This document shows, in pieces, positions 1,758 through 60,618 of a stretch of DNA of 64,000 nt. Below the pieces are notes generated by a model, which was not told where the DNA came from, did no database searches, and saw nothing but the letters and a program-made list of their open reading frames with translations. Numbering within the stretch: the first letter of the stretch is position 1; each line of letters opens with the position of its first letter. The translations under genes were made by a program, and so were the position numbers. The stretch lies in NCBI GenBank assembly GCA_023131895.1, contig JAGLYZ010000002.1, forward strand, positions 240,474-304,473, read 5' to 3'. This stretch comes from Candidatus Parcubacteria bacterium. GTDB taxonomy: Bacteria; Patescibacteriota; Minisyncoccia; Minisyncoccales; JAGMDC01.

Positions 1758-1765
1758 TAAATTGA

Positions 1766-1849: not shown

Positions 1850-1857
1850 CAATAAAA

Positions 1858-1885: not shown

Positions 1886-1887
1886 TT

Positions 1888-13573: not shown

Positions 13574-13616
13574 ACTAATTCTATTCTAACAACTTTTTTT
13601 ATTTTTACAAGGGAAG

Positions 13617-13625
13617 TGCTATAAT
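13617..13625 (+). promoter_or_regulatory. Extended -10 promoter (TGcTATAAT) for pth
   Basis: TGCTATAAT at 13617-13625, about 90 nt upstream of the pth ATG in the lepB/pth divergent spacer. Confidence 0.45.
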
Positions 13626-13637
13626 AGAAAAATCATA

Positions 13638-13716
13638 CTAACATTTTAACATATAAACATTTTAACAAAATTAAATCAAAAATGTTTAGATGTTTGAATG
13701 TTTAAATGTTTAAATG
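13638..13716. repeat. Imperfect inverted repeat of AAACATT-type heptads in the pth leader
   Basis: Left arm aacattttaacatataaacattttaac and right arm aaaatgtttagatgtttgaatgtttaaatgtttaaATG. The right arm contains the pth start codon. Confidence 0.7.
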
Positions 13717-14292: not shown

Positions 14293-16338
14293 ATGAACTT
14301 AATTATTGTAGAAAGTCCAACGAAATCAAAAACAATTCAGCAATTTTTAGGGCCTAAATACAAGGTCATTTCTTCATATGGCCATATCCGCGATTTGCCG
14401 AAAAGCGAATTAGGAATTGATATAGAAAACGATTTTAAGCCAAAATACATTATCCCTTTAAAAGCAAGAAAAACTGTTAACTCTTTAAAAAAAGATTCTC
14501 AAAAAGCAGACCTGCTTATTCTGGCTACTGATGAAGACAGAGAAGGAGAAGCAATTGCCTATCATCTAAGCCAGATTTTAAATTCAAATGGTAAAAAACA
14601 TCAGAGGATTGTCTTTCATGAAATAACTAAACAGGCGATTGAACAAGCACTAAAAAATCCTCGTGATATAGATATGGATCTTGTTGACGCCCAGCAAGCA
14701 AGAAGAATTTTAGACCGTTTAGTTGGCTATAAACTCTCCCCTCTTTTATGGAAAAAAGTTGCCAGAGGGCTCTCTGCAGGAAGGGTTCAGTCAGTGACAG
14801 TTCGGCTTGTGGTAGATCGGGAAAGAGAAATTGAAAATTTTAAGCCAGAAGAATATTGGACAATTATCGCCCATCTTGAAAAATACATCGAGAACAGTTC
14901 TCGATGTATTGAAGCGCTTTTGGTTAAAAAAAACGGCAAAGTAATTCCTAAATTAGGGATTAAAGTAAAAAAAGAAGCAGAAAAAATAATTGAAGATTTA
15001 AAAGGAGCAGAATACAAAATTTCAAATATTGAAAAAAAAGAAACTAAAAGAAATCCTTTGCCTCCATTTACTACTTCTACTTTACAGCAAGAATCATGGA
15101 GAAGGCTGCGTTGGCCAGTAAGACATACAATGAGAATTTCCCAGCAGCTTTATGAAAAAGGATTTATCACCTATCATAGAACCGATTCTTTAAATTTATC
15201 TGAAATATCTTTATTTTCCGCTAAAAAATTTATTATTAATAGCTTTGGAAAAGAATATTGGGCTGGATTTTTGAAAAAATACAAAACAAAAACAAAAGCA
15301 GCTCAAGAAGCCCACGAAGCTATAAGGCCTGCTTATCCTGATAAAAAGCCAAACAAAATAAAAGAAAAACTAGATGATAATCAATTTCGGCTCTATGATT
15401 TGATTTGGAGAAGATTTATTGCTTGTCAAATGAGCCAAGCTCGTTTCGATTCCACTACTGTTGACATCTCTGCCAAAAACTATATTTTTAGGGCTTCTGG
15501 ACAAGTATTGAAGTTTGATGGTTTTCTAAAAGTGTACCCTTTGAAATTTGAGGAATCAGAGTTACCTATTTTAGAAAAAAATGAAGTTTTAAAATTAAAA
15601 AAGCTTGTTCCTTCCCAGCACTTTACCCAGCCGTTGCCTCGCTATACTGAAGCTGGTTTAATTAAGGTTTTGGAAGAAAACGGCATTGGCAGGCCGTCAA
15701 CCTATGCGCCAACAATTTCTACTATTCAGGATAGAAATTATGTTCAGAAAAATGAAAATAAAAAGTTTGAACCGACAGAAATAGGAATTATTGTAAATGA
15801 TCTTTTGGTTGAACATTTTCCTAAAATTGTAGATATGAAATTCACAGCAGAAATGGAAAAGGATTTAGATGAAATCTCTGAAGGCAAGAAAAAATTGGTT
15901 CCAGTAATACAAGAATTTTATAAACCTTTTGAAAAAAACTTAAAGGCAAAAGAAAAAGAAATAGATAAAAAAGAAATTGCTGAAGAAAAAACAGATGAAA
16001 ACTGCCCTGAATGCGGCTCGCCATTGATAAAAAAAATGGGCAGATATGGAAAATTTTACGCTTGTTCCGGCTTCCCAAAATGCAGATATACCAAACCAAT
16101 AGAGAAACCAAAGCTTGGAATAAAATGCCCAAAATGCGAAAAAGGAGAAATAGTTGAAAAAAGAACTAGAAAAGGAAAAATTTTTTACGCTTGCAATCGC
16201 TACCCGGAATGCGATTTTGCCTTATGGGACAAACCTATAAATGAAAAATGCCCTGAATGCGGTTCTCTTTTAATTCAAACAAAAAAAGGCAAAATCAAAT
16301 GCTCAAACAAGGAATGCGATTATGTTAGAGATTCTTAA
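14293..16338 (+). CDS. topA: DNA topoisomerase I
   Basis: 681 aa with a Toprim N-terminus (IIVESPTKSKTI), active-site region ITYHRTDS and three C-terminal CxxC...CxxC zinc ribbons. Confidence 0.94.
   Translation: MNLIIVESPTKSKTIQQFLGPKYKVISSYGHIRDLPKSELGIDIENDFKPKYIIPLKARKTVNSLKKDSQKADLLILATDEDREGEAIAYHLSQILNSNGKKHQRIVFHEITKQAIEQALKNPRDIDMDLVDAQQARRILDRLVGYKLSPLLWKKVARGLSAGRVQSVTVRLVVDREREIENFKPEEYWTIIAHLEKYIENSSRCIEALLVKKNGKVIPKLGIKVKKEAEKIIEDLKGAEYKISNIEKKETKRNPLPPFTTSTLQQESWRRLRWPVRHTMRISQQLYEKGFITYHRTDSLNLSEISLFSAKKFIINSFGKEYWAGFLKKYKTKTKAAQEAHEAIRPAYPDKKPNKIKEKLDDNQFRLYDLIWRRFIACQMSQARFDSTTVDISAKNYIFRASGQVLKFDGFLKVYPLKFEESELPILEKNEVLKLKKLVPSQHFTQPLPRYTEAGLIKVLEENGIGRPSTYAPTISTIQDRNYVQKNENKKFEPTEIGIIVNDLLVEHFPKIVDMKFTAEMEKDLDEISEGKKKLVPVIQEFYKPFEKNLKAKEKEIDKKEIAEEKTDENCPECGSPLIKKMGRYGKFYACSGFPKCRYTKPIEKPKLGIKCPKCEKGEIVEKRTRKGKIFYACNRYPECDFALWDKPINEKCPECGSLLIQTKKGKIKCSNKECDYVRDS
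14884..14908. repeat. GAGAAC-N-GTTCTC family palindrome inside topA
   Basis: tacatcgagaac-a-gttctcgatgta, with 12-bp perfect arms. In frame, encoding YIENSSRCI. Confidence 0.85.
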
Positions 16339-17080: not shown

Positions 17081-18026
17081 TTTCTAAAAATCCATTAACA
17101 ATTAAATTAATGGCTTCTTTTTCGTTTAATCCACGCATTCTTAAATAATTTAATTCCTCTCCTGAAATTCTTCCAATTGAGGCCTCATGAGTAATTTGAG
17201 CTTTTGGGTGTTTGCAAATAAGCTCTGGTATAAGCCTTATTACAGAAGCTTTGCCTGCCCCGTAGGTCCCGCCCCTGCGGGATCCTTCGGGGTCAACTAA
17301 TAACCCCTGGCAGTCCAAATGACCTTTGCTTTCAGACTCGGCTATAACTTGAGAACGAGCAGTAATTTCGCTATCTTTATCTCCAACTAATCTTAATTTC
17401 ACTATTCCAGAAGCACCTTTTTCTTTTAGAATTAATGTCTCTTCAAATTCTGTTTTGGTTTGAGAAAATTTTCCCACAATATTCAGATTAGCAGAGGATC
17501 CTTCCAAAAGAGTAATTAATGTTTTCATCTTTAATTTTTTAGGAGGAGAAAAAACTTTATAACTATAATCTAATTTCGCCTTTTTCTCTAAGAAAAACTC
17601 ATAATTTGGCTCAACAATATCTCTTTCTCCCCAAGAGTGAATATGTCTATATTGAAGAGTTGATCCTTGTCTTAAAATAATCTTCCCTTTTGCCTGATGT
17701 ATTCCAGCTAAATTCTTTTTTAAAGCATTACAAGTTCCTTGGAGCTCTACTTTTAAATTCTTTTCTACAATTAAAAGATTCTGAAGCTCCTGCTTTATGC
17801 TTTTATTAGCAAGAGTAATACAAGTAAAAATGGGCTGTTGAGGTTGTTCTTTAACCCAAATAAAATAGCCGCTTTTTGGTTTTTTAAAAAAATATTCTTT
17901 AGTCCAGTTATATTTCTGCCAAGCCAATTCAGAAGGAAGAATCTCTATTTCTTTCAACTCACAAATTTCTGGAATTTGATTATTTATCTGATAATAATTC
18001 ACATTTTTTACATTTTTCATATCCAT
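17064..18026 (-). CDS. sufD: Fe-S cluster assembly protein SufB/SufD family
   Basis: 320 aa with C-terminal SufBD beta-helix pattern (ITHEASIGRISGEELNYLRMRGL). Overlaps the sufC 3' end. Confidence 0.75.
   Translation of the reverse strand: MDMKNVKNVNYYQINNQIPEICELKEIEILPSELAWQKYNWTKEYFFKKPKSGYFIWVKEQPQQPIFTCITLANKSIKQELQNLLIVEKNLKVELQGTCNALKKNLAGIHQAKGKIILRQGSTLQYRHIHSWGERDIVEPNYEFFLEKKAKLDYSYKVFSPPKKLKMKTLITLLEGSSANLNIVGKFSQTKTEFEETLILKEKGASGIVKLRLVGDKDSEITARSQVIAESESKGHLDCQGLLVDPEGSRRGGTYGAGKASVIRLIPELICKHPKAQITHEASIGRISGEELNYLRMRGLNEKEAINLIVNGFLERPIAK
17258..17292. repeat. GC-rich hairpin inserted in sufD
   Basis: ccccgtagg-tcccgc-ccct-gcggga-tccttcgggg, a stem of about 15 bp with one mismatch. 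In frame, encoding PEGSRRGGTYGAG. Confidence 0.8.
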
Positions 18027-18714
18027 ATCTTTTAATGGTTTTCAGAATCTTTTTATAATTTTTTTCTTTACAAATAATCCTTCCATTAACTATTACATTA
18101 GTAATATTTGGTTTTAAAAATTTTAAAATTTCTCCAGAGTGAGTAATCAAGAGAATTGAAATATCTTTTGCGAGCAGTTCTTTTTTAATTATCTCTGCTA
18201 CTTCTTTTATTTTCTTTAAATCCAAGCCAGAATCAATCTCATCAAAAATTACTAGCTTTGGTCTTAAAGATAAAATCTGTAATAATTCTGACATTTTTTT
18301 CTCTCCACCGGAAAAATTAACATTAATCTCTCTATCTAATAAGTAGAGCGAGAACTGTTCTCGCTCTATCAGAGCGAGAACAGTTCTCGCTCTAGATCTC
18401 GCGTGGATCTTCTCTAATAATTGAGAAAGTTTTACTCCTTTTACAGCTGGCGGATTTTGCCAAGTTAAAGCAATCCCTAATTTAACTCGTTTTTCAGGAG
18501 AAAGTTTGGTAATATCTTCTTTATTAAAAAAAATCCTGCCTTCTATAATTTTAACATTCGGATTCCCTAAAATCACTTGAGCAAGAGTGGATTTCCCGCT
18601 GGCATTTGGACCAAGAAGAGCTTGTATCTCCCCTTTTTTTATTGTTAAATCAATCCCTTCTAATATCTCCTTACCATCGCCTGAAACTTTTAAATTTTTA
18701 ATTTCTAAAAGCAT
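17980..18714 (-). CDS. sufC: Fe-S cluster assembly ATPase SufC
   Basis: 244 aa ABC ATPase with Walker A GPNASGKST, signature FSGGEKK and Walker B VIFDEIDSGLD. Confidence 0.9.
   Translation of the reverse strand: MLLEIKNLKVSGDGKEILEGIDLTIKKGEIQALLGPNASGKSTLAQVILGNPNVKIIEGRIFFNKEDITKLSPEKRVKLGIALTWQNPPAVKGVKLSQLLEKIHARSRARTVLALIEREQFSLYLLDREINVNFSGGEKKMSELLQILSLRPKLVIFDEIDSGLDLKKIKEVAEIIKKELLAKDISILLITHSGEILKFLKPNITNVIVNGRIICKEKNYKKILKTIKRYGYEKCKKCELLSDK
18345..18410. repeat. Two tandem 23-bp GAGAAC-N-GTTCTC palindromes plus an AGATC..GATCT palindrome inside sufC
   Basis: agagcgagaac-t-gttctcgctct at 18345-18367, agagcgagaac-a-gttctcgctct at 18371-18393, then agatctcgcgtggatct. In frame, encoding SRARTVLALIEREQFSLY. 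Confidence 0.9.
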
Positions 18715-18825
18715 AAAAATTATTTTTCTAATTATATTCTTCTAAAATCTTTCTTGTTTTCGGCTATTTTAAAACCTCAGCCAAAGTCGTATCTTTAGTG
18801 ATTTTGTTTTTCATTTTTACAAGGA

Positions 18826-19587
18826 TCAACCAGATAGCCAGCCGCCGTCAATCACTACTGTAGAGCCAGTGATGTAAGAGGATTCATCTGAAGCTAAAAA
18901 CAAGACCAAATTAGAAACCTCTTCTGGTTTGCCTACTCGGTGCATTGGGACTCGAGCCAGCATTCCTTCCATTGTTTTAGGGTCCTGCTTGACTGATTCA
19001 ATCATTGGTGTTTCAATCATTCCCGGAGCAATGGCATTAACTCGAATATTATAAGGAGCTAACTCCACTGCTAATGCTTCGGTCATTCCAATAATTCCGC
19101 CTTTTGAAGCACAATAATGCACAATATTAGGGAATCCAATTCCCTGTTGACCCATAGCTACTGAGGAGATATTGATAATTCTTCCGAATTTCTGCTTTGC
19201 CATTTCTTTAACTGCTGCCTGGGCGCAGAGAAAATATCCTTTGAGATTAATATCCAATGTTCGAGCCCAATCCTCCTCTGTTAATTCCAGAAATAGTTTG
19301 AACTGGCAGATTCCAGCGTTATTAACTAAAATATCTATTTTACCAAATTTCTCCACTGTTTTTTTTACCATTTCATCTACTTCCTCTTTTTTAGAAACAT
19401 CACATTTTACAGCCATTGCCTCTCCCTTATTTTTCTTTATCTCTTCCACTACTTTCTCACAGTCCTCCTGAGAAATATCAGAAACAACTACTTTTGCTCC
19501 GGCTTTTGCTAAAATCAAAGCATGAGTTCTACCCATCCCTCTTCTAGCACCAGTAATAATAGCTACTTTGTTTTTTAATTCAAACAT
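18826..19587 (-). CDS. SDR-family oxidoreductase (FabG-like)
   Basis: 253 aa with TGARRGMG cofactor motif and the YCASKGG catalytic YxxxK. Confidence 0.85.
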   Translation of the reverse strand: MFELKNKVAIITGARRGMGRTHALILAKAGAKVVVSDISQEDCEKVVEEIKKNKGEAMAVKCDVSKKEEVDEMVKKTVEKFGKIDILVNNAGICQFKLFLELTEEDWARTLDINLKGYFLCAQAAVKEMAKQKFGRIINISSVAMGQQGIGFPNIVHYCASKGGIIGMTEALAVELAPYNIRVNAIAPGMIETPMIESVKQDPKTMEGMLARVPMHRVGKPEEVSNLVLFLASDESSYITGSTVVIDGGWLSG

Positions 19588-19624
19588 AGATTTTGAGTTT
19601 TTTAATTTTAAACCGACCTTTTTT

Positions 19625-19641
19625 CCGAGAACGGTTCTCGG
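19625..19641. repeat. Intergenic GAGAAC-N-GTTCTC palindrome
   Basis: ccgagaac-g-gttctcgg lying between the ccdA-like stop and the SDR start. Confidence 0.8.
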
Positions 19642-19645
19642 TATT

Positions 19646-26235: not shown

Positions 26236-27933
26236 CTATTTTTTCTGCACGAATTTGCAGGGATGTTTAGCAATTATTACTGAAACCTCTTTTTTGTTTA
26301 AAAAATCCTTAATTGCTTTTACAAATTCTTCCTGTTTGACCGGGTCAATTGTTTTTAAATGCTTAACTCCGCAGGCTTTAACAATATTTTCAATACTTAC
26401 TCCATCTGGTTCAGTCGGCGCGCTTGGATGCGGCTGATGGCCAGTCATAGCAGTAGTGGAATTATTCATAATAATTATTAATGGGTTTGATTTATTAAAA
26501 ACCGTGTTAATCAAACCAGTAATGCCGGAATGGAAAAAAGTTGAATCACCAATAAAAGTAATCAGTTTTTGCTCGCTTACCTTCTTAATCCCATGAGCAA
26601 TACCAATTGAAGAACCCATACAGTAAAGATAATCCTGAACATTGTGGGGAGAAAATCCTGCCAACATATAACAGCCAATATCACCGCCGAAAATTACATC
26701 CATACCTTTTGCAGCTTTTTTGACGCCTCCAAAAACCAACCAATAAGGACAGCCATGGCAAAGCTGAGGATGACGACGAGGAATTTTTCTAGCTTCGCCA
26801 GATCTGGCAGAGCCAAACAATTCCAATTTTTTATCAGTAAATTTGGCGATTGCCTGAATAACTATTTCAGGTTTCAACTCGCCGACTTCTGGTACTAAAT
26901 CTTTGCCAATAATCTTTAAATCACAATTTACTTCTTTTGCCATTCTTATTACTTCATTTTCTAAATATGGTTCTAATTCTTCTACTATTAAAACCTTATC
27001 CAAATTTTTAATAAAATTTTTAATTTTTTTCTCTGGCAAGGGATGAAAAAATCCAAGCTTTAAAACCGGCAAAGAAATATTTAATTCCTTTAATGCTTCT
27101 TTCACATAGAGATAAGAAACTCCGGAAGTAATAATTCCGAGCTTCGCAGAGACCCGACCTCCGCCAATTCTGGCGGAGGTCGGGTCTCTTCCGGCTTCTC
27201 TTCTAATTAAATTCAATTTGCTTTTCTCGCTATACTCACGTATTTTTTCAATCTTATCCAAAAGTTCCTTATGCATTTCCATAACTCGAGGCGGCATTGT
27301 TACAAATTTCTTATTGTCCTTTATAAATTTTCCATGGAGAACTGTTCTCAATGTTTTTAATTTGTCTAGTTTGACTGGAGCGCTTTGGTGCGCTACTCTT
27401 GTTGTCTCTCTAATCATTATCGGAATTTCAAATTTTTCAGATAAATCAAAAGCAAATTTAATAAAATCCTTACATTCTTGAGGGATTGACGGTTCAAGAA
27501 CAGGAATATTGGCTAAAGCCGCAAAAGCCCGGCTGTTCTCTTCTGATTGAGCCGAGCTATGGCAGGAAGGATCATCTGCTATTAAAATTACCATTCCTCC
27601 CTTAACTCCAGAATAAACCAATGGAAGTAAAAAATCAGAAGCAACATTTAAACCAAAATTTTTCATTGCCACCAAAGAGCGCAAACCAGAAAAAGAAGCG
27701 CCTCCTGCTGCTTCTATCGCGACTTTTTCATTAACAGAAAACTCAAAATATAAGCTTTTAATTTTGTCTTTAGAGTTTTGAATCTGATAAAAACTATTAC
27801 CGATCTCTGAAGCCGGCGTCCCAGGATAAGTGGAAACAAACTGAACGCCTGCTTCCAAAGCGCCTCTTACTATTGCCTCGTTTCCTAAAAGAATAACTTT
27901 TTTGTTTGGTTTCTCTAAAATATTTTCAAACAT
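26236..27933 (-). CDS. iorA: Indolepyruvate:ferredoxin oxidoreductase alpha subunit (TPP-binding)
   Basis: 565 aa with N-terminal LLGNEAIVRGALEAG...STYPGTPASE and TPP block GDIGCY. No C-terminal 2x[4Fe-4S] CxxCxxCxxxCP motifs are visible. Confidence 0.8.
   Translation of the reverse strand: MFENILEKPNKKVILLGNEAIVRGALEAGVQFVSTYPGTPASEIGNSFYQIQNSKDKIKSLYFEFSVNEKVAIEAAGGASFSGLRSLVAMKNFGLNVASDFLLPLVYSGVKGGMVILIADDPSCHSSAQSEENSRAFAALANIPVLEPSIPQECKDFIKFAFDLSEKFEIPIMIRETTRVAHQSAPVKLDKLKTLRTVLHGKFIKDNKKFVTMPPRVMEMHKELLDKIEKIREYSEKSKLNLIRREAGRDPTSARIGGGRVSAKLGIITSGVSYLYVKEALKELNISLPVLKLGFFHPLPEKKIKNFIKNLDKVLIVEELEPYLENEVIRMAKEVNCDLKIIGKDLVPEVGELKPEIVIQAIAKFTDKKLELFGSARSGEARKIPRRHPQLCHGCPYWLVFGGVKKAAKGMDVIFGGDIGCYMLAGFSPHNVQDYLYCMGSSIGIAHGIKKVSEQKLITFIGDSTFFHSGITGLINTVFNKSNPLIIIMNNSTTAMTGHQPHPSAPTEPDGVSIENIVKACGVKHLKTIDPVKQEEFVKAIKDFLNKKEVSVIIAKHPCKFVQKK
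27149..27188. repeat. Perfect 17-bp-stem GC-rich hairpin inside iorA
   Basis: gagacccgacctccgcc-aattct-ggcggaggtcgggtctc. In frame, encoding GRDPTSARIGGGRVS. Confidence 0.92.
27337..27349. repeat. GAGAAC-N-GTTCTC core inside iorA
   Basis: gagaac-t-gttctc, read in the gene as LRTVLH. Confidence 0.7.
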
Positions 27934-30407: not shown

Positions 30408-32849
30408 TTAACAAACAATATTAATTAATCTTCCTTTAATAAATACCACCTTCTTGATGGGCTTGTCCTCTATCCATTTTTTAACTTTTTCTCTCTCTAA
30501 TGTCAATCTTTTTGCTTCTTCTTCTGAAATGTCTATTTCAACTTCTATTTTGTCGCGCATTTTGCCATTAATCTGGATGATTAAAAAGATTTTTTCTTCT
30601 TTAATTAACTTCGGATTATACTTGGGCCATTTTTCTTTAAAAATAGATTTTTTATAACCTAAATTTTGATAAATCTCTTCTGAAATATGCGGCGCAAAAG
30701 GAGAAAGCAAAATCAACATTTTTTCAATTGTATCTTTGCCAACTTCTTTTTTATCTTCCAAACCCAAATTTACAAACTTCATAAAACCAGCAATGATGGT
30801 ATTGAATTTTGTTGCTTCTAAATCCTCATCTATTTTTTTATTAAGTTGATGAATCGCTCTTATTATTTTGGGACTGCTTTTTTCGTTTTTAGAACACTCC
30901 AAACTCAATTTCCAAACTTTTTCTAAAAACCGATAAACACCTTTCACTCCTTTAGCGCTCCAGACAATTGCCTGACCAAATGGACCCATAAACATTTCAT
31001 AAACACGCAAAGTATCTGCTCCGTATTCTTTAATAATATCATCAGGATTAACTACATTGCCAAATGACTTTGACATTTTTCTTCCATCTTCAGCTAAAAC
31101 TATACCATGAGAAGTCCTTCGAGTATAGGGTTCTGCCTGCGGAGCAATGCCAATATCAAAAAGAAATTTATACCAAAAACGAGAATATAGAAGATGCAAA
31201 GTTGTGTGCTCCATGCCGCCGTTATACCAATCTACTGGCAGCCAATATTTTAATTTTTTGGAATCAGCTAACGATTTATTATTATCAGTATCAGTATAGC
31301 GCATAAAATACCAAGAAGAACCAGCCCAGTTAGGCATAGTGTCGGTTTCTCTTTTAGCTGGTCCCTTGCATTTTGGACACTTGATATCAACCCAATCTTT
31401 AATTTTTGCTAAAGGCGATTCACCAGTGCCTGTTGGCTGATACTTTTCAATATAAGGAAGTTTTACTGGTAAATCTTTCTCCGGCACTGGAATTGCACCG
31501 CATTTTTCACAATGAATAATTGGCATCGGTTCTCCCCAGTAATGCTGTCTGGAAAAAACCCAGTCCCTTAGTCTGTAGTGAACTGTTTTTCTGCCAAAGC
31601 CCTGCTTTTCAGCACATTTTAGCATTTCATCTCTTGCTTTTTTTGAACTCAAACCCGAAAATTGTCCGGAGTTAATCAAAACTCCGTCTTCTACAAAACA
31701 TTCATTTAACTTGGGGAGAACGGTTCTCGTTGATTTCGTCAACGAGAACCGTTCTCGCGAGACTATTACTTCTTTGACTGGCAATTTATATTTTTTAGCA
31801 AAATTAAAATCTCGTTTGTCATGAGCAGGAACTACCATTACTGCCCCTCCTCCATAAGTCGCCACTATATAATCTCCTATCCAAATAGGAATTTTTTCAT
31901 TATTTACTGGATTAATACAATAAGAGCCAGTAAAAACTCCTGTTTTTTCTTTTTTTAATTCTGTTCTTTCAAAATCACTTTTTTTCTTTGATTGTTCAAT
32001 ATAATTAATTACTTTCTCATTGTTGCCATCTGTAATTAGCTTTTCAATCAAGGAATGTTCCGGAGCTAAGACAACAGCTGTCACCCCGAAAATAGTGTCA
32101 GTCCTAGTAGTAAAAACTTTTATTGTGTCTTGAGAATTTTCAATTTTGAAATTAATTTCTATGCCATAACTTCTGCCAATCCAATTTATCTGCTGGGCTT
32201 TAATTTTTTCTAAATAATCAAGCTTTTCTAAATCATCTATCAGCCGGTCAGCATATTTAGTGATTTTTAACATCCATTGTTTTTTTATTTTTTTTTCTAC
32301 TTGAGTATTGCAGCGCTCGCACTTACCGGAAACCACTTCTTCATTGGCTAAGCCAATTTTGCAGGAAGGACACCAGTTAATAGGTATTTCTGCCTGATAA
32401 GCCAAGCCCTTTTCAAAAAGCTGAAGAAAAATCCATTGAGTCCATTTGTAATATTTTGTGTCAGTGGTATTAATTTCCCTATTCCAATCAAAAGAAAGAC
32501 CTAAATTTTTAAATTGTCTTTTAAAATTGGCGATATTTTTTTTAGTTGCTTCTTGAGGATGAATCCCTGTTTTTATAGCATAATTTTCTGCCGGCAAACC
32601 AAAAGCATCCCAGCCAATAGGAAACAAAACATTATATCCTTCCATTCTTTTTTTTCGAGCAACAGCGTCTAAGGCAGTATAAGGTCTTAAATGACCAACA
32701 TGAAGCCCTTCTCCTGAAGGATAAGGAAATTCAATTAAAATATATTTTTTAGGTCTCTTTGAAAAATCTTGAGCTCTATATATTTCTGATTTTTCCCAAG
32801 TTCTTTGCCATTTTGGCTCAATTTTTTGCGGTTCGTATTTTTTCATCAT
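30408..32849 (-). CDS. leuS: Leucine--tRNA ligase
   Basis: 813 aa class I aaRS with HVGH, the KMSKS motif (RKMSKSFGN) and a CP1 editing domain. Confidence 0.95.
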   Translation of the reverse strand: MMKKYEPQKIEPKWQRTWEKSEIYRAQDFSKRPKKYILIEFPYPSGEGLHVGHLRPYTALDAVARKKRMEGYNVLFPIGWDAFGLPAENYAIKTGIHPQEATKKNIANFKRQFKNLGLSFDWNREINTTDTKYYKWTQWIFLQLFEKGLAYQAEIPINWCPSCKIGLANEEVVSGKCERCNTQVEKKIKKQWMLKITKYADRLIDDLEKLDYLEKIKAQQINWIGRSYGIEINFKIENSQDTIKVFTTRTDTIFGVTAVVLAPEHSLIEKLITDGNNEKVINYIEQSKKKSDFERTELKKEKTGVFTGSYCINPVNNEKIPIWIGDYIVATYGGGAVMVVPAHDKRDFNFAKKYKLPVKEVIVSRERFSLTKSTRTVLPKLNECFVEDGVLINSGQFSGLSSKKARDEMLKCAEKQGFGRKTVHYRLRDWVFSRQHYWGEPMPIIHCEKCGAIPVPEKDLPVKLPYIEKYQPTGTGESPLAKIKDWVDIKCPKCKGPAKRETDTMPNWAGSSWYFMRYTDTDNNKSLADSKKLKYWLPVDWYNGGMEHTTLHLLYSRFWYKFLFDIGIAPQAEPYTRRTSHGIVLAEDGRKMSKSFGNVVNPDDIIKEYGADTLRVYEMFMGPFGQAIVWSAKGVKGVYRFLEKVWKLSLECSKNEKSSPKIIRAIHQLNKKIDEDLEATKFNTIIAGFMKFVNLGLEDKKEVGKDTIEKMLILLSPFAPHISEEIYQNLGYKKSIFKEKWPKYNPKLIKEEKIFLIIQINGKMRDKIEVEIDISEEEAKRLTLEREKVKKWIEDKPIKKVVFIKGRLINIVC
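31716..31756. repeat. Nested double GAGAAC-N-GTTCTC palindrome inside leuS
   Basis: gagaacggttctcgttga-tttcg-tcaacgagaaccgttctc. The two 18-nt arms are perfect inverted copies and each arm contains its own palindrome. In frame, encoding SRERFSLTKSTRTVLP. Confidence 0.9.
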
Positions 32850-32929: not shown

Positions 32930-33790
32930 TTAAATTTTAAACAACTTTTTAGCGTTTGTACTGGTGATTTCAGCTATTTTCTCAAGAGGGATATTTTTAA
33001 TTTTAGCAATATGTTCGGCAATGTATTTGATAAAAATGGGTTCATTTCGGCCCGCCTTCGCTAAAGCTTTGGCGGGCAAAGGCGGAGTTAAAAAAGGACA
33101 ATCTGTTTCAATCAAAATTCTATCTAATGGCGTTTTTTTAATTATTTCATCAAGGTCTAATTTAAAAACAATTCCATTAAAACCTAAATAAAATCCCATT
33201 TCTAAAAATTTCTCTGCCTGCTCCCAAGTACCGGTAAAAGAATGGATTACCGAGGTCAGACCTTCTATAGGAGGTCTGACCTCAAGTATTTCTATTAAAT
33301 CGTCGTGAGCCATTCGGCAGTGAAAGATTACTGGCAGATTTAATTCTTCGGCTAATTTTAATTCCTGCTCAAGAAGTGCTTTTTGTTTTTCTTTAAAAAG
33401 CGCAAGCTTTTTCTTTGTTTTCGGCTTATAGTAATAATCCAATCCAATTTCGCCAATAGCCACTACTTTTTTAGATTTTGCTAATTCTTTGTATTTATTG
33501 AAATTAAAATTCTCTTCTAATATATCTTCTAAGTTTTGAGTTTTAAGTTGTGGCTTTGACTTTTGAGTTTTGACTTTTGAGTTTTGTTTAATATTAATAG
33601 GGTGAAGTCCAATCGCCGCATATACTCTTTCATTATAATCCTTTGAAATTTCAACTGCTTTTTTTGAGGTCTCATAATTTGTCCCTACATTTATCATCCA
33701 AATATTATTATCTAAACATCTCTTTATAACTTCATCTCTATCTCTGTCAAAAGCAGCAAAATTAAGATGAGCATGAGTATCTACAAGCAT
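32930..33790 (-). CDS. tatD: TatD-family metal-dependent hydrolase/DNase
   Basis: 286 aa with MLVDTHAHL, the ...ETDCPFLTP... blocks and NEP. About 30 aa longer than usual because of three repeat insertions. Confidence 0.9.
   Translation of the reverse strand: MLVDTHAHLNFAAFDRDRDEVIKRCLDNNIWMINVGTNYETSKKAVEISKDYNERVYAAIGLHPINIKQNSKVKTQKSKPQLKTQNLEDILEENFNFNKYKELAKSKKVVAIGEIGLDYYYKPKTKKKLALFKEKQKALLEQELKLAEELNLPVIFHCRMAHDDLIEILEVRPPIEGLTSVIHSFTGTWEQAEKFLEMGFYLGFNGIVFKLDLDEIIKKTPLDRILIETDCPFLTPPLPAKALAKAGRNEPIFIKYIAEHIAKIKNIPLEKIAEITSTNAKKLFKI
33049..33085. repeat. AAGCTT-centred GC-rich element inside tatD
   Basis: ggcccgccttcgctaaagctttggcgggcaaaggcgg. Its reverse complement closely matches argS 47682-47708. 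Encodes PLPAKALAKAG between the CPFLTP and RNEP motifs. Confidence 0.8.
33252..33283. repeat. Perfect 12-bp-stem hairpin inside tatD
   Basis: gaggtcagacct-tctatagg-aggtctgacctc. In frame, encoding EVRPPIEGLTSV. Confidence 0.9.
33531..33587. repeat. G/T-rich ~57-nt repeat shared with ileS
   Basis: aagttttgagttttaagttgtggctttgacttttgagttttgacttttgagttttg is about 80% identical to 44810-44866. Encodes NSKVKTQKSKPQLKTQNL. Confidence 0.85.
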
Positions 33791-43962: not shown

Positions 43963-46900
43963 TTAAATTCTTCTAATTCCCAGCCAGAGTTCTTGGCCTT
44001 CTATTTTAAAAGTTTTCTCAATATCAAAAACTCTTTTTGGTCTGTCACCCTCTAAAAGGTCCTTAACTACAATCTCTTTTAAAATTGTCTTTTTATTTTT
44101 CTTTAAAATTTCACAGAGCTTTTCTTCCCCAGAATATCTAACAAACACCCGGTGTTTGGGCTTATAACCAGCTTTTTTACGCATTTCTTGAATATTTCGA
44201 ATAATCTCCCTGATTATTCCTTCTTCTCTTAACTTCGGCGTAATTTTAGTATCTAATTTAAAGGTTTTATCAAAGGTAATTTTTTTCACATTTACTTCAT
44301 CTTTAATCAATCCTAATAATTCTTTATTCCTTTTTAGCTTTTCATTTTTACTTTTTACTTCGAGCAAAGCGAGCGGCTGACGGACTTTTATTCCTGCCTT
44401 TGCTCGTTGAGCCAATCCCTTTGCTACAATTTCCCGCACTATTTTCATTTTTTCTTCTAATTTCTTATCAATTGCCTTCTTATCTGGTTTTGGCCAATCT
44501 TCTAAATGAACAGATTTATTTTTCGAAGAATTTTGGCATATTTCTTCTGAAATAAATGGAACAAACGGGGCTGTCAACTTAGCTAAGCTAAGAAGAACAA
44601 ATCCCAAAGTTTGCGACGCTTCTTGAAAATCTTTTTTTGTTTTGGGGTTCTGAAATCTCTTCCTAGATCTTCTCACATACCATAAAGATAAATCGTTGAT
44701 AACAAAATCCTCTATATCTCTGGCCGCTGAAGTAATATCGTAATTATCTATCTTTTCAGAAACCCCTGAAATTAATTCATTTAATCTGGAAATTATCCAT
44801 CTATCTAACAAGTTTTGAGCTTTGCGTTGTGGCTTTGCACTTTGAATTTTGAGCTTTGAGTTTTCTTTTGGAACATATGTTTCAAAAAAGGTATATACAT
44901 TATAGTAAGTAAGAATAAATTTCTTTAATGCCTTATCTACATCTTTTTCTGTAAATAGTTTGGAATCGCCTGGCTGATTTATAGTATAAAAATACCAGCG
45001 AGCAGCATCTGAACCATATTTTTCAATTATATGCCAGGGATCAACCACATTGCCCTTGGACTTTGACATTTTTTCTCCCTTTTCGTCTAAAACATGGCCT
45101 AAAGAAATAACATTTTTATAAGGAGTGCCAAAATCTAATAAAGTTGAGATTGCCAACATGGTATAAAACCAGCCTCTTGTTTGATCAATTGCTTCGCAAA
45201 TATAATCAGCTGGAAATTGATTTTTAAATTTTTCTTGCTCAAAAGGGTAATGATACTGGGCAAACGGCATTGCGCCAGAATCAAACCAGCAATCAATCAC
45301 TTCTGGAACTCGCTTCATTAAATTATTACATTTAGGACACTCAAATTTTACTTCATCAATATATGGTTTGTGAAAATCCAATTCTTGATTTTCTTTATTA
45401 TAAGGAAAAAGCTTAAATTCTAATCTCCTTAATTCTCCAACATCCATACTTCTATCTTGCCAGTGTTGTGTAATTTCTTGTTGAGAAAATCCTTTAACAA
45501 TACTTTCCGCCATTAAGATTGGACCGCCATGGCTAACAATTAAAATATTCTTATTTTTGTATTTTTTATCTACTTCTTTTAGAAAATCGTAGACTCGCTT
45601 TTTAACATCTGTGTAGCTTTCTCCTTTAAACGGCCTTTTGTCAAATTTATCTATTTTCCCTTCAAATAATTTACGGTACTCTTTAATATTTTTACCATCA
45701 AAAATACCAATATTTACTTCTATTAAACGTTTATCATATTTTACTTTCTTTCCAATTTCTTTTGAAATAATTTCAGCTGTTTGCTTAGTTCTTAAAAAAT
45801 CAGAAGAGAATATTAAATCTATTTTTTCTTTTTTTAACTCTTGCACTGCTTTTTTAATTTGCTCCCTGCCTTTTTTAGTCAAAGGACAGCCAGCTCCCTT
45901 ATTTTTATAAGAAAGAATATGCTTTTTGAAGCACTCTGATTCTCCATGTCTTAAAATAAAATATTTATTAGTGCTGAATTTCTGTTTTAATAAATCATCT
46001 TTGCTTCCGATAATTTCTTGATAACCGCATTTTTTACACTGCCAAATAGGCAATGGAGTTCCCCAATATCTTTCTCTGGAGATAGCCCAATCCTTTAATC
46101 CTCTCAACCATTCGCCGAACCTGCCCTGCTTTAAATGCTTAGGAACCCAGTTTATCTTTTCGTTATTTTTAATCAAATCTCTCTTAACTTTTGTCATTTT
46201 AATAAACCAACTCTTCTGGGCATAGTAGATTAAAGGCGTCTTGCATCTCCAGCAAAAAGGATAGTCATGTTCATACAGTTCTTCTTTAAAAAGCAGCTTT
46301 CTCTTTTTTAAATCTTCAATAATCAGCGGATCAGCCTTTTTTACAAACAAATTATTCCACTTATATCCTGAAGTCATCATCTTGCCCTGCTCATCTACCG
46401 TAATCAAAACAGGAAGATTGTTTTCTTTGCTAACGTTCATATCATCCTCACCAAATGCTGGCGCAATATGAACCAATCCTGTGCCATCCTCTGTTGTTAC
46501 AAAATCTCCAGCAACTATCTTATAAATGTTTGGAATTTGGAATTTATACAAGGGTTTGTATTTAAGGCCGATTAAATCTTTTCCTTTAAATTCCTCTATA
46601 ACTTCGCCTTCTATGCCAGATTCTTTTATTCTGTTTTTCGCCAAAATCAAAAATTCATTATTAACTTTTACCTTAGCATAAATAAACTTCGGGTTGACTG
46701 CTACTGCTGCATTACCAGGCAAAGTCCATGGCGTTGTAGTCCAAACAAGCAAATATGTATTTTTCTGCCCTTTGATAGAAAACTTTACATAAATTGAGTT
46801 TTCTTTGACTTTCTTGTATCCTTGCGCCACTTCATGGGAAGATAAAGATGTTCCGCATCTGGGACAGTATGGCACAACTTTATAATCCTTATATAAAAGT

Positions 46901-47391
46901 TTTTTCTGCCATATCTGTTTTAAGAGCCACCAAACGGTTTCAATATAATCGGTTTCGTAAGTAATATAAGGATTTTTCATATCCAGCCAATAACCAATTT
47001 TCTCTGTTAAATCTTCCCAGTCCTTTTTATACTGCCAGACAGATTCCTGGCATTTTTGATTAAATTTTATAATTCCAAATTTCTCAATATCTTTCTTGCT
47101 TCTTAGCCCTAATTTTTTCTCAACCTCCAATTCAACTGGCAGACCATGCGTATCCCAGCCAGATTTTCTGATTACCTTAAAGCCATTCATTGTCTTATAA
47201 CGGCAAATCATATCTTTAAATACTCTTGCTTCAAGATGATGAATACCCGGCTTGCCATTGGCAGTAGGCGGCCCTTCATAAAAAACAAAATTGGGCGCTT
47301 TTTTTCGCTGCTCAATTGATTTTTCAAAAATCCTGTTTTCTTTCCAGAATTTTATAATCTTTTTTTCTAACTTAGAAAATTCAACTAACAT
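43963..47391 (-). CDS. ileS: Isoleucine--tRNA ligase with internal extra domain
   Basis: 1142 aa with a HIGH-type motif (PGIHH), KMSKS, a CP1 editing domain and zinc knuckles. Carries a ~190-aa insertion at about aa 476-665. Confidence 0.93.
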   Translation of the reverse strand: MLVEFSKLEKKIIKFWKENRIFEKSIEQRKKAPNFVFYEGPPTANGKPGIHHLEARVFKDMICRYKTMNGFKVIRKSGWDTHGLPVELEVEKKLGLRSKKDIEKFGIIKFNQKCQESVWQYKKDWEDLTEKIGYWLDMKNPYITYETDYIETVWWLLKQIWQKKLLYKDYKVVPYCPRCGTSLSSHEVAQGYKKVKENSIYVKFSIKGQKNTYLLVWTTTPWTLPGNAAVAVNPKFIYAKVKVNNEFLILAKNRIKESGIEGEVIEEFKGKDLIGLKYKPLYKFQIPNIYKIVAGDFVTTEDGTGLVHIAPAFGEDDMNVSKENNLPVLITVDEQGKMMTSGYKWNNLFVKKADPLIIEDLKKRKLLFKEELYEHDYPFCWRCKTPLIYYAQKSWFIKMTKVKRDLIKNNEKINWVPKHLKQGRFGEWLRGLKDWAISRERYWGTPLPIWQCKKCGYQEIIGSKDDLLKQKFSTNKYFILRHGESECFKKHILSYKNKGAGCPLTKKGREQIKKAVQELKKEKIDLIFSSDFLRTKQTAEIISKEIGKKVKYDKRLIEVNIGIFDGKNIKEYRKLFEGKIDKFDKRPFKGESYTDVKKRVYDFLKEVDKKYKNKNILIVSHGGPILMAESIVKGFSQQEITQHWQDRSMDVGELRRLEFKLFPYNKENQELDFHKPYIDEVKFECPKCNNLMKRVPEVIDCWFDSGAMPFAQYHYPFEQEKFKNQFPADYICEAIDQTRGWFYTMLAISTLLDFGTPYKNVISLGHVLDEKGEKMSKSKGNVVDPWHIIEKYGSDAARWYFYTINQPGDSKLFTEKDVDKALKKFILTYYNVYTFFETYVPKENSKLKIQSAKPQRKAQNLLDRWIISRLNELISGVSEKIDNYDITSAARDIEDFVINDLSLWYVRRSRKRFQNPKTKKDFQEASQTLGFVLLSLAKLTAPFVPFISEEICQNSSKNKSVHLEDWPKPDKKAIDKKLEEKMKIVREIVAKGLAQRAKAGIKVRQPLALLEVKSKNEKLKRNKELLGLIKDEVNVKKITFDKTFKLDTKITPKLREEGIIREIIRNIQEMRKKAGYKPKHRVFVRYSGEEKLCEILKKNKKTILKEIVVKDLLEGDRPKRVFDIEKTFKIEGQELWLGIRRI
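44810..44866. repeat. G/T-rich ~57-nt repeat shared with tatD
   Basis: aagttttgagctttgcgttgtggctttgcactttgaattttgagctttgagttttc. In frame, encoding NSKLKIQSAKPQRKAQNL. Confidence 0.85.
45397..45966 (-). other. Histidine phosphatase (PGAM-like) domain embedded in IleRS
   Basis: YFILRHGES (RHG catalytic motif), SSDFLRTKQTA, IEVNIGIFDG and IVSHGG (second catalytic His). It lies between the IleRS blocks ...PIWQCKKCGYQEIIGS and DFHKPYIDEVKFECPKC. Confidence 0.7.
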
Positions 47392-49919: not shown

Positions 49920-50319
49920 GGGAGTGTCAGGTCTCGACAGAAATTTGAGTTAAAATATGCAAGTCGAGTTTTCTCAAATCTCGCAAAACTTTGAGAAAAA
50001 AATAAGTGTCAACTTATTTTCTAAAGCTAAAACGGCTCTCGTTAACGCCATTGGCGAATATCCGAGTGTTCCGACTTTAGCTCCTGCTTACGTTTAATCG
50101 TAAGTCATCTGATTGTTGATTCTCGCTGGGCAAAATCAGGTGTTATATTTAGCGAGATACTCAGTTCTCTTGTCTCAAAGGACTGGGAAAAATATAGAGG
50201 CTAAGAATATTGAAATTTTGTTCATTTTTTATTTAGTATTCCGAAAAAACAAAATGGACTAAATTTGTAGAAATATTTTGGCAAAATTTCTGGACAGGGC
50301 TTCGATGCCCTCACTTCCA
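49920..50319 (+). ncRNA. ssrA: tmRNA (SsrA)
   Basis: Begins 4 nt after the smpB stop. 5' GGGAGTG pairs with 3' CACTTCC, and a tRNA-like T arm (agggcTTCGATgccct) plus discriminator A are present. An internal ORF at 50026-50097 ends ...TLAPAYV-stop. Confidence 0.8.
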
Positions 50320-50330
50320 CATAAAATAAT

Positions 50331-53127: not shown

Positions 53128-53865
53128 ATAACTTAAAAGTTGTTTTGCGTTTTCAACAGCATAACCCATAGTATCATTGTTGAAATACACATAAACATCC
53201 AAACCTTTTTTTCGCCATTTTTTGATTTTCTGAGCCAAATTTTCAAGTTCTTTTTTCGTATATTTCGAACTAAATAAAATTTTAGAACCATGCATTCTAA
53301 TATAAACAAAATCAGCTGTTATCTCCTCGGCTTTTGGAAAGGAAGGTGAATCACTAATAACCCATGCGCAGTTGTATTTTTTTAGTAACTTGTAAATTTT
53401 CTCATTACACCAAGTTTGATGCCGAAATTCAAAACTATACTTTAAATTTATCGAAGTCCGACTTCGTAATATTGTTAAAAACTCTTCTAATCTTTTTGTA
53501 TTCTCGTCAGTAGCTTGAAAGTTTGGAGGAAATTGGAACAAAATCGGACCAAGCTTTTCTTTGAGATTTAGGGCATTTTCTAAAAAAGTTTTCCAGGGTA
53601 TTTTTACATCCTTTAACCGTTTGATGTGGGTAATGAAACGACTTGCTTTGACACTAAATATAAAATCTTTAGGAGTTTGTTTATACCAATTCTGATAAGT
53701 AGCTGGCTTTGGTAAATGATAAAAAGAATAATTTACTTCCGCTGTCTTGAAATGCTCTGAAAAATATTTCAATTTATCTTTTCCTGATAAATCTTCAGGA
53801 TAAAAAATACCATCCCAATGAGAATAGACCCAACCCGATGTTCCGATAAAAACTTTGCCTGCCAT
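53110..53865 (-). CDS. DUF72-family protein (YecE-like)
   Basis: 251 aa with the N-terminal IGTSGWVYSHW signature of DUF72. Confidence 0.8.
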   Translation of the reverse strand: MAGKVFIGTSGWVYSHWDGIFYPEDLSGKDKLKYFSEHFKTAEVNYSFYHLPKPATYQNWYKQTPKDFIFSVKASRFITHIKRLKDVKIPWKTFLENALNLKEKLGPILFQFPPNFQATDENTKRLEEFLTILRSRTSINLKYSFEFRHQTWCNEKIYKLLKKYNCAWVISDSPSFPKAEEITADFVYIRMHGSKILFSSKYTKKELENLAQKIKKWRKKGLDVYVYFNNDTMGYAVENAKQLLSYRPLTK

Positions 53866-59331: not shown

Positions 59332-60618
59332 CTAAAATAGGGTTTTCTGGTTTGGCGACTTTTTCCGCTCAGCTTTAGAAAAAATTCTGACTTTGCCGAA
59401 AACACCGTCATAACCTGGCTCAACATCAACCCTTCCCTGTCTTACTCTTATTATTCCTTCAGTAATCTCTGGCAAGGTTGCTGACTGTAAATCTGTTTTG
59501 GGAATATCTAATAAAATTTTAAACTCCTGACCAAATTTTTCAATTAGATTTTTATACTCTGCTACTACTCGCTTTGTGCCTGTATTTTGACCCAAACTTT
59601 CAGCAATTATTTCTTCTAAGAGAACCATGCTTTTAAAAGGAACTACTCCTTCTGGTTTAAATCCCTCTGGCTTATCTGCTAACTCTTCTACTCGGTTTAA
59701 AACTCCAATAGTTAATGGCTTGCCGCAATTAGGGCATATATTGTTATATTTTTTTGATTCTAAAGGCGATAAGCTAATTTCGCAAGTTCTATGTCCGTCA
59801 TAATGGTATTTTCCTTCTTCAGGGTAAAACTCAATAGTGTAAAGAAACTTTTTGGGATTTTTTGATTTCATTGCTTCCATAATAGAAAAATAATCTAATT
59901 CTGTATCAAAAACATTTGCTTCCCTGCCAAGTTTAGGGCCACTGTGCGCGTCACTGTTTGAAATTATAGCAACCTTTCGACCATCAGGTATTCGCCAGAG
60001 CATTGCCGGGTCCGCGCTTAAACCGCTCTCTATTGCATAAATATACTTTGTGTAATCTTCAAAACATTCTTCCAAAGAATCAAAGCCTGACTTTGAACCA
60101 AATATACCAAACCATGGAGTAAAACAATGTGCTGGAACAATTAAACAATCTTGGGAAGTATTTAAAACGATTTTTGCTAATTCTTTTACATCCAAACCTA
60201 AAATTGGCCTGCCATCAGATTTTAAGTTTCCAATCCCGCTCAATTGAGTATTGATTTTTTCAACAACTTCAAAAGAAGGCGCGAAAACTATGATATGAAT
60301 TTTACGAACTCTTCCATTTTTAGAATAAATACAGCTAATTTCTGAAGTTAGAATAAACCTTGTCTCTTTTTCGCGTAGTTTCGCGTTTAGTCCTGCGTGG
60401 TTTCGCGAACCAGGGCTTTTTATTCTAAAAAGCCCTGGTTCTGCTGGTTCCAATTTCTCTTTTATATTTTGAAACCATTCTGGATGAGTAAAATCACCTG
60501 TTCCTAAAACTTTAATCCCTTTGATCTTTGCCCATTTATCTAAATTTTCTAAATCCATTTGCGGGCTGGTCGCTCTTGAATATTTAGAATGAAGATGAAA
60601 GTCAGCTATAAATTTCAT
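59332..60618 (-). CDS. endoQ: Endonuclease Q (EndoQ) family, PHP domain plus zinc finger
   Basis: 428 aa with ADFHLHSKYSRATS, GTGDFTHPEW, NSDAHS and CPNCGKPLTIGVLNRVEELAD. It is collinear with archaeal EndoQ as I recall it. Confidence 0.75.
   Translation of the reverse strand: MKFIADFHLHSKYSRATSPQMDLENLDKWAKIKGIKVLGTGDFTHPEWFQNIKEKLEPAEPGLFRIKSPGSRNHAGLNAKLREKETRFILTSEISCIYSKNGRVRKIHIIVFAPSFEVVEKINTQLSGIGNLKSDGRPILGLDVKELAKIVLNTSQDCLIVPAHCFTPWFGIFGSKSGFDSLEECFEDYTKYIYAIESGLSADPAMLWRIPDGRKVAIISNSDAHSGPKLGREANVFDTELDYFSIMEAMKSKNPKKFLYTIEFYPEEGKYHYDGHRTCEISLSPLESKKYNNICPNCGKPLTIGVLNRVEELADKPEGFKPEGVVPFKSMVLLEEIIAESLGQNTGTKRVVAEYKNLIEKFGQEFKILLDIPKTDLQSATLPEITEGIIRVRQGRVDVEPGYDGVFGKVRIFSKAERKKSPNQKTLF
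60368..60441. repeat. TTTCGCG direct repeats (x3) plus perfect 16-bp-stem hairpin inside endoQ
   Basis: gaaccagggcttttta-ttc-taaaaagccctggttc at 60407-60441, preceded by tttcgcg at 60369, 60379 and 60401. In frame, encoding PGLFRIKSPGSRNHAGLNAKLRE. Confidence 0.85.

Follow-up and report, generated by a model that had tools for sequence, protein, structure and literature searches.

Repetitive extragenic palindromes (REPs) form hairpins when they occur as doublets and associate with REP-associated tyrosine transposases (RAYTs) (PMC3116915), and in the REP/RAYT arrangement copies of a palindromic repeat lie on either side of the cognate transposase gene (PMC3116915, PMC3733652). Intragenic REPs are also documented, with dimers encoding some 20-30 extra residues that presumably lie in loops (PMC3733652), and perfect hairpin stems can be made by replication template switching (PMC8794818). 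Here we describe a 41-nt palindromic doublet within leuS, the gene for leucyl-tRNA synthetase (LeuRS), in a 64-kb stretch of AT-rich DNA (32.8% GC) from a Candidatus Parcubacteria bacterium, hereafter referred to as the window. This sequence is likely to be one copy of a Patescibacteria-wide palindromic family resembling REPINs (REP doublets forming hairpins), probably selfish and spread by a transposase, which has been inherited in a tolerant loop of LeuRS. The family is real and extends across Patescibacteria; it is ordinary in kind and new as a family, and literature searches, made on the motif and on palindromic inserts of Parcubacteria or candidate phyla radiation genomes, turned up no description of it.

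A perfect hairpin in leuS

The leuS element consists of the arms GAGAACGGTTCTCGTTGA (31716-31733) and TCAACGAGAACCGTTCTC (31739-31756) on either side of a TTTCG loop (31734-31738). An earlier sequence-only reading had described two perfectly inverted arms of 18 nt, each holding its own GAGAAC-N-GTTCTC palindrome (hereafter the core). A repeat finder recovered the same arms, 100% complementary and 5 nt apart, and a complete 6-N-6 palindrome was located in each (Table 1). The element is read as SRERFSLTKSTRTVLP in LeuRS (residues 363-378), again as described. Folding gave -31.2 kcal/mol for the mRNA strand (z = -6.65) and -23.2 kcal/mol for the DNA strand (z = -9.25). The alternative hairpin conformations that had also been proposed are possible, but an arrangement of three small hairpins is much weaker than the long one (-9.3 vs -30.1 kcal/mol).

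An independent ENA assembly (L005) is identical to the window in its DNA at the element, and a metagenome-assembled genome (MAG) of another species carries the same element at the same place, so an assembly artefact can be discounted. For topA, the window protein is likewise 100% identical to a protein deposited at NCBI under 'Candidatus Parcubacteria bacterium'. Rfam 15 has no family matching the leuS site, where only sub-threshold hits to generic hairpins were returned; the Rfam matches in the window are a tmRNA (49920-50322) and one tRNA (1766-1849), and nothing else.

An in-frame insertion in the LeuRS editing domain

The element coincides with a clear length difference in the protein. Most of the best 120 relatives of the window LeuRS, which come from Parcubacteria and prominently from Nealsonbacteria and similar groups, have 798-799 residues and read EVI-SGGDISK-EAFVDYG at the site, where the window reads EVI-VSRERFSLTKSTRTVLPKLN-ECFVEDG. 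The loop thus has 20 residues instead of the 7 found in most relatives, a net gain of 13 codons. The comparison with sister genomes that the sequence-only reading had proposed located empty sites in the DNA of two syntenic genomes, L001 (86% LeuRS identity) and L003 (80%), and the gain of 13 codons against both bears out its expectation that the element would coincide with an indel; the insert is also missing from more than 100 further LeuRS relatives. The loop is too diverged in L001 and L003 for the insertion boundaries to be placed at single-base resolution.

The insert lies within the Pfam editing-domain match (residues 222-411), in a loop that is variable even in comparison with the LeuRS of Thermus thermophilus, the best solved relative. 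In the AlphaFold model, residues 363-385 fall between two short strands and form the stretch of lowest confidence (pLDDT below 50). Many other Parcubacteria LeuRS carry insertions in this same loop and in a second loop near residue 240. Three of these were examined as DNA and also proved to be GC-richer palindromes, one of them holding GAGAAC-GCA-GTTCTC. The reading frame is kept, and the surface loop of the editing domain that holds the leuS insert is a tolerant one; we infer that the insert is translated without contributing to LeuRS function, most likely forming a neutral loop extension of 13 residues. A much larger protein insertion, of about 150 residues, is found at the same hot spot (around residue 369) in one relative of 953 residues (P0085).

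The closest relative found for the window genome is the Nealsonbacteria MAG CSMAG_2411 (L039, L116), with 91.1% nucleotide identity over the 5' part of leuS; a search of metagenomes for a closer leuS gave distant relatives only (best 69% identity). CSMAG_2411 carries the element at the same place in leuS, with all 36 arm bases identical and a loop of TAAAA vs CGAAA, which differs by 2 bases. The sequence-only reading had asked whether close relatives encode the same peptide in non-palindromic DNA; in CSMAG_2411, the closest, this peptide is encoded, and by identical palindromic arms. Because the insert is present in CSMAG_2411 and absent in L001 and L003, it is older than the split between the window genome and CSMAG_2411 and younger than the split from L001 and L003. 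Vertical inheritance of the leuS copy since before the former split is thereby shown for one relative.

Copies of the core in the window

The core occurs 7 times in the window where 0.05 matches are expected, a number that none of 100 shuffled sequences reached, and no other GC-rich 6-N-6 palindrome is repeated there. The seven cores form five loci, all within about 17 kb (14.9-31.8 kb) of the 64 kb, giving a density of about 0.1 per kb. The copies are not confined to extragenic DNA, since the leuS copy and four other core or related palindromes of the window lie within open reading frames (ORFs). They are flanked as C-core-G, G-core-G and similar forms, with neither a GTAG nor a CGTC tag. Conserved terminal inverted repeats around a variable interior were not seen, as the conserved part is central in each unit; the flanks are inverted rather than direct repeats, and target-site duplications were not seen. 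Clustering of the sites around an origin or terminus was considered and dropped, since GC skew is uniformly negative throughout the window.

Table 1. Positions of the leuS element and of other core copies and related palindromes in the window (window coordinates), followed by transposase-like genes found elsewhere (last five rows; coordinates within the named locus)
Feature	Position	Strand	Remarks
leuS host gene, 813 aa, bacterial-type LeuRS	30408..32849	minus	HVGH and KMSKS motifs
LeuRS codons 362-381 (VSRERFSLTKSTRTVLPKLN), variable-loop segment	31707..31766	minus	replaces SGGDISK of relatives
Inverted doublet in leuS, REPIN-like: core, GTTGA-TTTCG-TCAAC spacer, core	31716..31756		18-bp perfect hairpin, 5-nt loop
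First core, GAGAAC-G-GTTCTC	31716..31728		
Second core, GAGAAC-C-GTTCTC	31744..31756		centre base complementary to that of the first core
Single core in topA	core at 14890, 29-nt palindrome 14882..14910		8-nt locus-specific flanks, AATACATC-core-GATGTATT
Second doublet, nested, 24-nt perfect arms	18344..18394, cores 18350 and 18376		in SufC-like ABC ATPase gene
Single core (CC-core-GG), intergenic	19625..19641, core at 19627		edge of window-specific insertion of a short-chain dehydrogenase gene
Single core in POR-type gene	27337..27349		read as RTVL
Perfect palindrome in POR-type gene, 19-nt arms	27148..27189		GAGACC/GACCTC hybrid core; +13 codons vs L003
Sister-family doublet, core GAGGTC-N-GACCTC	33252..33283		in TatD gene 32930..33790, minus
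Single GAAGTC-C-GACTTC core, DUF72 gene	53453..53465		core type of sister genome L001
L108 transposase-like gene	2653-3321		core doublet 54 nt upstream; single in-frame core at aa 58-62; doublet 11 nt past stop
L073 (Nealsonbacteria) transposase-like gene	2367-3065		preceded by two core units and followed by one; a further unit inside (aa 61-69)
L008 transposase-like gene	2310-3011		core doublet upstream
L065 transposase-like gene	6969-7688		TGTACGAGGTC-G-GACCTCGTACA on both sides and as an interruption at aa 61-71; GAGAAC doublet 155 nt downstream
L201 transposase-like gene	1501-2214		third hairpin family, TTACGAGGC-GAA-GCCTCGTAA, on both sides and within the gene at aa 63-72

Among the copies listed in Table 1, the nested doublet in the SufC-like ABC ATPase gene (17980..18714, minus strand) adds 5 residues relative to a sister genome. 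The core in topA (14293..16338, plus strand) is found without any net change in length against relatives. Around it, a patch of about 48 nt (14860-14960, residues 190-215) is only about one-third identical to CSMAG_2411 and to L006, with flanks at about 90% identity and an unchanged length. The patch encodes IEALLVKK, resembling more distant lineages, which suggests a recombined mosaic segment. In the region 18715-19645, the short-chain dehydrogenase gene 18826..19587 is inserted between the SufC-like gene and its neighbour relative to L006 and CSMAG_2411, and the single core at 19625-19641 stands at the junction of this insertion, 4 nt from the stop codon of the neighbouring gene. The pyruvate:ferredoxin oxidoreductase-type gene (POR) that holds two of the palindromes extends over 26236..27933 on the minus strand.

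The swapped rather than inserted appearance of the topA patch is also what would be seen if the core were a DNA uptake signal, favoured by the competence machinery and spreading by biased uptake and recombination in the manner of uptake signal sequences and DNA uptake sequences (USS/DUS). Copies do lie in variable protein loops, and a DprA gene is found nearby in relatives. Against this, the density is low and the five core loci are confined to about 17 kb, the motif is palindromic and mostly arranged in doublets, and an association with a transposase, as described below, would not be expected, making an uptake signal extremely unlikely. Integron attC and Xer/dif-like sites were set aside on their spacing and consensus, which do not seem to fit.

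The window copies turn over between close relatives. CSMAG_2411 lacks those in topA, sufC, both POR sites and TatD, and carries cores that the window lacks. In POR, TatD and sufC, different perfect palindromes are found in the same loop among relatives. The TatD palindromes of the window and of L001 are set apart by the four symmetric positions of their half-sites (GAGGTC vs GAAGTC), each palindrome thereby matching the family of its own genome rather than reflecting slow compensatory drift. In CSMAG_2411, another core pair lies at a rearrangement junction (L039, about 3220-3253). In the sister genome L006 (15900-15977), the called SufC of 283 residues has a 45-residue N-terminal extension derived from GC-rich palindromes, GCCTGCCTGCCGGCAGGCAGGC and CCTCGCCC-TTTA-GGGCGGGG, in DNA that is intergenic in relatives.

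Three further features of the window were observed. A perfect palindrome with 16-nt arms, GAACCAGGGCTTTTTA-TTC-TAAAAAGCCCTGGTTC, at 60407-60441 is unrelated to the GAGAAC core and lies within an ORF without Pfam match (59332..60618). AT-rich imperfect inverted and direct repeats of the AATGTTTAAATGTTT type occupy 13631-13716, in the divergent intergenic region 13573-13714. The IleRS ORF on the minus strand (43963-47391, 1142 residues) contains a complete histidine-phosphatase domain (His_Phos_1, residues 478-642) inside the class I synthetase core.

A family across Patescibacteria

A search for two cores separated by 3-30 nt, with one genome per prokaryotic species, returned 108 stretches. In Patescibacteria there are 90 doublets in 30 assemblies, belonging to Nealsonbacteria, Portnoybacteria, Minisyncoccales, Paceibacterota and MAGs labelled Saccharibacteria, with as many as 16 in a single MAG (PFOG01) and 23 in another (VGKE01). 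The usual length is 31-41 nt with spacers of 4-29 nt, and in the DNA of the fetched loci doublets are far commoner than extra singlets. Inverted pairs, recognised by their complementary centre bases, account for 77 of the 90, and their excess persists when the high-copy VGKE01 repeat is left out (54/67, p = 2e-21). In VGKE01 (Nealsonbacteria; L013, L017, L022 and about 20 other loci), the doublet core-GGCAATATTGCC-core is part of a longer non-coding repeat (about 250 nt, more than 20 copies, many of them at contig ends), whose sharply defined left boundary is about 40 nt from the doublet.

The inverted layout bears on how the leuS doublet was built. The sequence-only reading proposed that a family element had been duplicated or inserted into a copy of itself, and the part of that proposal concerning a repeated family holds, each arm being palindromic in its own right. 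Self-insertion, however, would give the order half-full-half, an outer element split around an inner one, whereas two complete cores stand side by side around a palindromic spacer, with G and C as centre bases, complementary as in an inverted pair. Doublets of other genomes show this arrangement 77 times, with 4-29 nt between the cores, and a nested self-insertion is thus very improbable.

About a third of the doublets (28/90) lie deep within long ORFs, including those for enolase, topoisomerase I, LeuRS, GluRS, MurJ, ComEC, TsaD, RNase HII, Pth, AtpG, MiaB and prepilin peptidase. The doublets in topoisomerase I sit in the same loop as the window copy, and those in LeuRS in the other hot spot. 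The three reading frames of the core are used in a ratio of 13:9:6 among these 28, giving EN-S, GEQFS or RTVL, and no frame of the core contains a stop codon. Because the core is read in all three frames, it is the DNA or RNA that is conserved and not the peptide, and a function of the core at the peptide level is ruled out.

Twenty-two loci of the search fall outside Patescibacteria. In Actinobacteria (L010, L016, L032, L057, L051, L094, L095, L107) a -10-like sequence stands between two copies of the 13-mer, each of them a T-core-A box, and in the four loci examined (L010, L032, L057, L051) the boxes are located between rpmB/rpsN-type ribosomal-protein paralogues and a CobW-like gene. In Rhodocyclaceae (L052, L071) the 13-mer is found upstream of feoAB-like genes. 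These boxes look like operators of the Fur family (Zur/Fur), separate from the Patescibacteria repeats.

These paired promoter boxes, Zur-regulon-like in Actinobacteria, are one reason to consider the leuS palindrome a functional cis-element, in which the hairpin tunes translation or stability of the leuS mRNA or the 13-bp palindromes bind a dimeric protein such as a Fur-family regulator. The great stability of the hairpin and its two arms, unchanged in two species against a background identity of 91%, are consistent with such a role. However, the site is missing in nearly all LeuRS relatives, copies are found in many unrelated genes, in three frames and with turnover between close relatives, and Rfam returned no family match. 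A Fur/Zur box was considered for the window copies and rejected on context: the leuS copy is mid-gene with G and G flanks and is not a T/A-ended promoter box, and the window copies in general have neither T and A flanks nor a promoter context. A cis-element is therefore improbable as an account of the palindrome, although the hairpin may have a regulatory role in the leuS mRNA, or the insert may be removed at the RNA level.

Association with a Y1 transposase

The link to a transposase comes from loci fetched by the doublet pattern alone and then searched by local tblastn. Six of them (L108, L073, L008, L065, L093, L056) contain genes for Y1 transposases of the IS200-like kind. Two of these genes, those of L093 and L056, are located at the locus margin, where the nearest doublet is 3.4 kb and about 1 kb away, and the others are accompanied by the repeat as listed in Table 1. 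The repeat around and inside the L065 gene is of the GAGGTC core type, as in the TatD copy of the window; the RAYT-like gene with this core type on its flanks belongs to a related Nealsonbacteria genome. L201 is a homologue of the L108 protein that was fetched by protein look-up and not by the doublet pattern. All five tabulated proteins pass the Pfam Y1_Tnp cutoff, and for the two proteins tested against NCBIfam the sole hit was REP-associated tyrosine transposase (REP_Tyr_transpos). A PDB sequence search with a transposase-like protein gave no meaningful match. Genes bracketed by their cognate repeat in the layout of REP and RAYT are thus found in related Patescibacteria, although their NCBIfam match is below cutoff and the window has no such gene.

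An identical 40-nt doublet at two loci of one genome, L018 and the site downstream of the L108 transposase gene, fits the copying of whole doublets. The architecture of the leuS element had been taken in the sequence-only reading as evidence of past mobility; mobility of the family is supported indirectly, by the unrelated loci, by gain and loss between relatives, by the copy shared between L018 and L108 and by the flanked transposase-like genes, while at leuS itself past mobility is presumed.

In four of the RAYT-like genes, a cognate hairpin is also present in frame within the gene (L108 2827-2839; L073 2549-2571; L065 7149-7181; L201 1688-1716). It occupies a common site at about residues 58-72, before the HUH motif, although three hairpin families are involved. 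This internal hairpin could serve autoregulation or self-recognition, and we know of no description of a cognate hairpin in frame inside RAYT-like genes. A broader proposal would be that undescribed miniature REPIN/RAYT systems occur throughout the phylum, with hairpins both flanking and inside their RAYT-like genes as self-recognition or autoregulatory sites, and with dispersed copies that remodel the loops of essential proteins. This is possible, if on present evidence somewhat doubtful; if true, the remodelled loops would include those of aminoacyl-tRNA synthetases, enolase and topoisomerase I across Patescibacteria.

A proposed origin of the repeats

By analogy with REP/RAYT systems and with the established biology of IS200/IS605 elements, we infer that the transposase mobilises the core. 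A REP-associated, IS200-like Y1 (HUH) transposase would probably recognise the core hairpin in single-stranded DNA and copy the core around the genome. In gene-dense genomes, genic copies would persist only when in frame and in permissive surface loops, and the leuS copy would have entered the hypervariable editing-domain loop before the window organism and CSMAG_2411 separated.

A second layer of mechanism is needed because the centre of the unit is conserved while the flanks are locus-specific and the spacers differ. The nascent strand would fold back at the core, copy itself and realign on the second core, giving the order core-y-loop-y'-core-y. In agreement with this order, the outer flanks of doublets repeat the inner flanks by at least 3 nt in 29% (right) and 28% (left) of cases, compared with 3.4% in controls. 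In POR, the L001 palindrome, made up of the CSMAG_2411 sequence and an 18-nt inverted copy, also agrees with such a step. The proposal that the core hairpin seeds template switching during replication, and that doublets and the palindromic flanks peculiar to each locus arise in this way, is nevertheless a tentative one, because single copies could instead be decayed doublets.

Template switching could also be thought to act by itself, making the palindrome in place with no mobile element and with the shared core as a by-product. The mechanism is documented (PMC8794818, PMC8604942), the enrichment of core-y-y'-core-y flank repeats is about 8-fold over controls, and many unrelated perfect palindromes exist in these genomes. 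At the first POR site, palindrome arms match the sequence of relatives at the uninterrupted site: the outer 9 nt of the window palindrome at 27148-27189 are the L003 sequence, and the L001 palindrome equals the CSMAG_2411 sequence at the site plus an 18-nt inverted copy. These supposedly native sequences could, however, be decayed singlets of the repeat. Moreover, a purely local process cannot put the same 13-mer at five unrelated loci in 64 kb or in 30 genomes, and leaves the 13-mer that flanks a transposase gene unexplained. Such an origin is accordingly quite unlikely, and spread of a REPIN-like family by a transposase is preferred.

Several observations weigh against the preferred account. 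The spacers vary within one genome, with at least 10 distinct among the 16 PFOG01 doublets, and simple copy-and-paste of a master doublet therefore does not explain all copies. The copies in topA, POR (27337) and TatD show no net gain in length against relatives and stand in a strongly diverged patch, which leaves insertion boundaries undefined at these three. The absence of any change in the 36 arm bases of leuS is weakly significant (p about 0.035), so that selection on the hairpin, rather than neutrality, is possible. The GTAG/CGTC tag of classical REPs is missing from the window copies, the form CTAC-core-GTAG being found in only some copies, in other MAGs. Finally, the NCBIfam scores of the transposase-like proteins (48 and 44 bits) are below the curated RAYT cutoff of 80, and tblastn found no RAYT-like gene, nor any transposase, in the 64-kb window.

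Implications

The tiny, gene-dense genomes of the candidate phyla radiation thus still host selfish hairpin repeats that look active, and because intergenic space is lacking the repeats settle in frame in the loops of essential enzymes. Such inserts account for some of the unusual variation in length among Patescibacteria proteins, and annotation should expect both palindromic inserts and spurious N-terminal extensions. They can also act as phylogenetic markers, the leuS insert grouping the window genome with CSMAG_2411. Through its association with a compact Y1 transposase, the family offers a directly testable REP/RAYT pair from an uncultured lineage. The most unusual by-product of the analysis is the cognate in-frame hairpin at one fixed internal position of the transposase-like genes.

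Comparison with known systems

The Fur-family 7-1-7 operators share with the Patescibacteria repeats an identical 13-mer, which forms paired promoter boxes in Actinobacteria and Rhodocyclaceae. They differ in their T and A flanks, in their promoter sites and in occurring once per regulon promoter, whereas the Patescibacteria copies are dispersed, often within coding sequence, and flank transposase genes. Mobile GC-rich hairpins are also known from AT-rich organelle genomes, as the GC clusters of yeast mitochondria and the double-hairpin elements of Allomyces. These resemble the present family in that GC-richer palindromes invade a compact AT-rich genome, coding regions included, but they are organellar, unrelated in sequence and without a Y1 transposase (see also PMC2670323, PMC7813641).

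The hairpins attributed to template switching (Mönttinen & Löytynoja 2022, PMC8794818) are similar in having perfect stems made in one step, arms that are the reverse complement of a neighbouring sequence and mirrored changes in the arms. Template switching, or quasipalindrome correction, is however a mutational process and not a family of elements, and it covers the variable flanks, and perhaps the doublets, but not the shared core.

Rickettsia palindromic elements resemble the family in function only, as in-frame palindromic inserts. Those of the RPE-1 type are 100-150 nt long. Together with the intragenic GTAG/CGTC REPs, they provide in-frame palindromes, often dimers, in housekeeping genes (Di Nocera et al. 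2013, PMC3733652), but their sequences appear unrelated to the present family, which has a Patescibacteria host and no tag.

The closest likeness in organisation is to the REPIN/REP-RAYT systems (Bertels & Rainey 2011, PMC3116915), with which the family shares short palindromic units, inverted doublets that are commoner than singlets and fold as a single hairpin, a transposase-like gene of the Y1 (HUH) type with its cognate repeat on the flanks, and different repeat families with different transposase genes. In contrast, the Patescibacteria doublets are much shorter (31-41 nt), and the unit is conserved in a perfect central palindrome of 13 nt while flanks and spacer vary. The window copies are untagged (no GTAG) and about a third of the family copies are intragenic, and the transposase-like proteins are distant from curated RAYTs, scoring under the NCBIfam cutoff.

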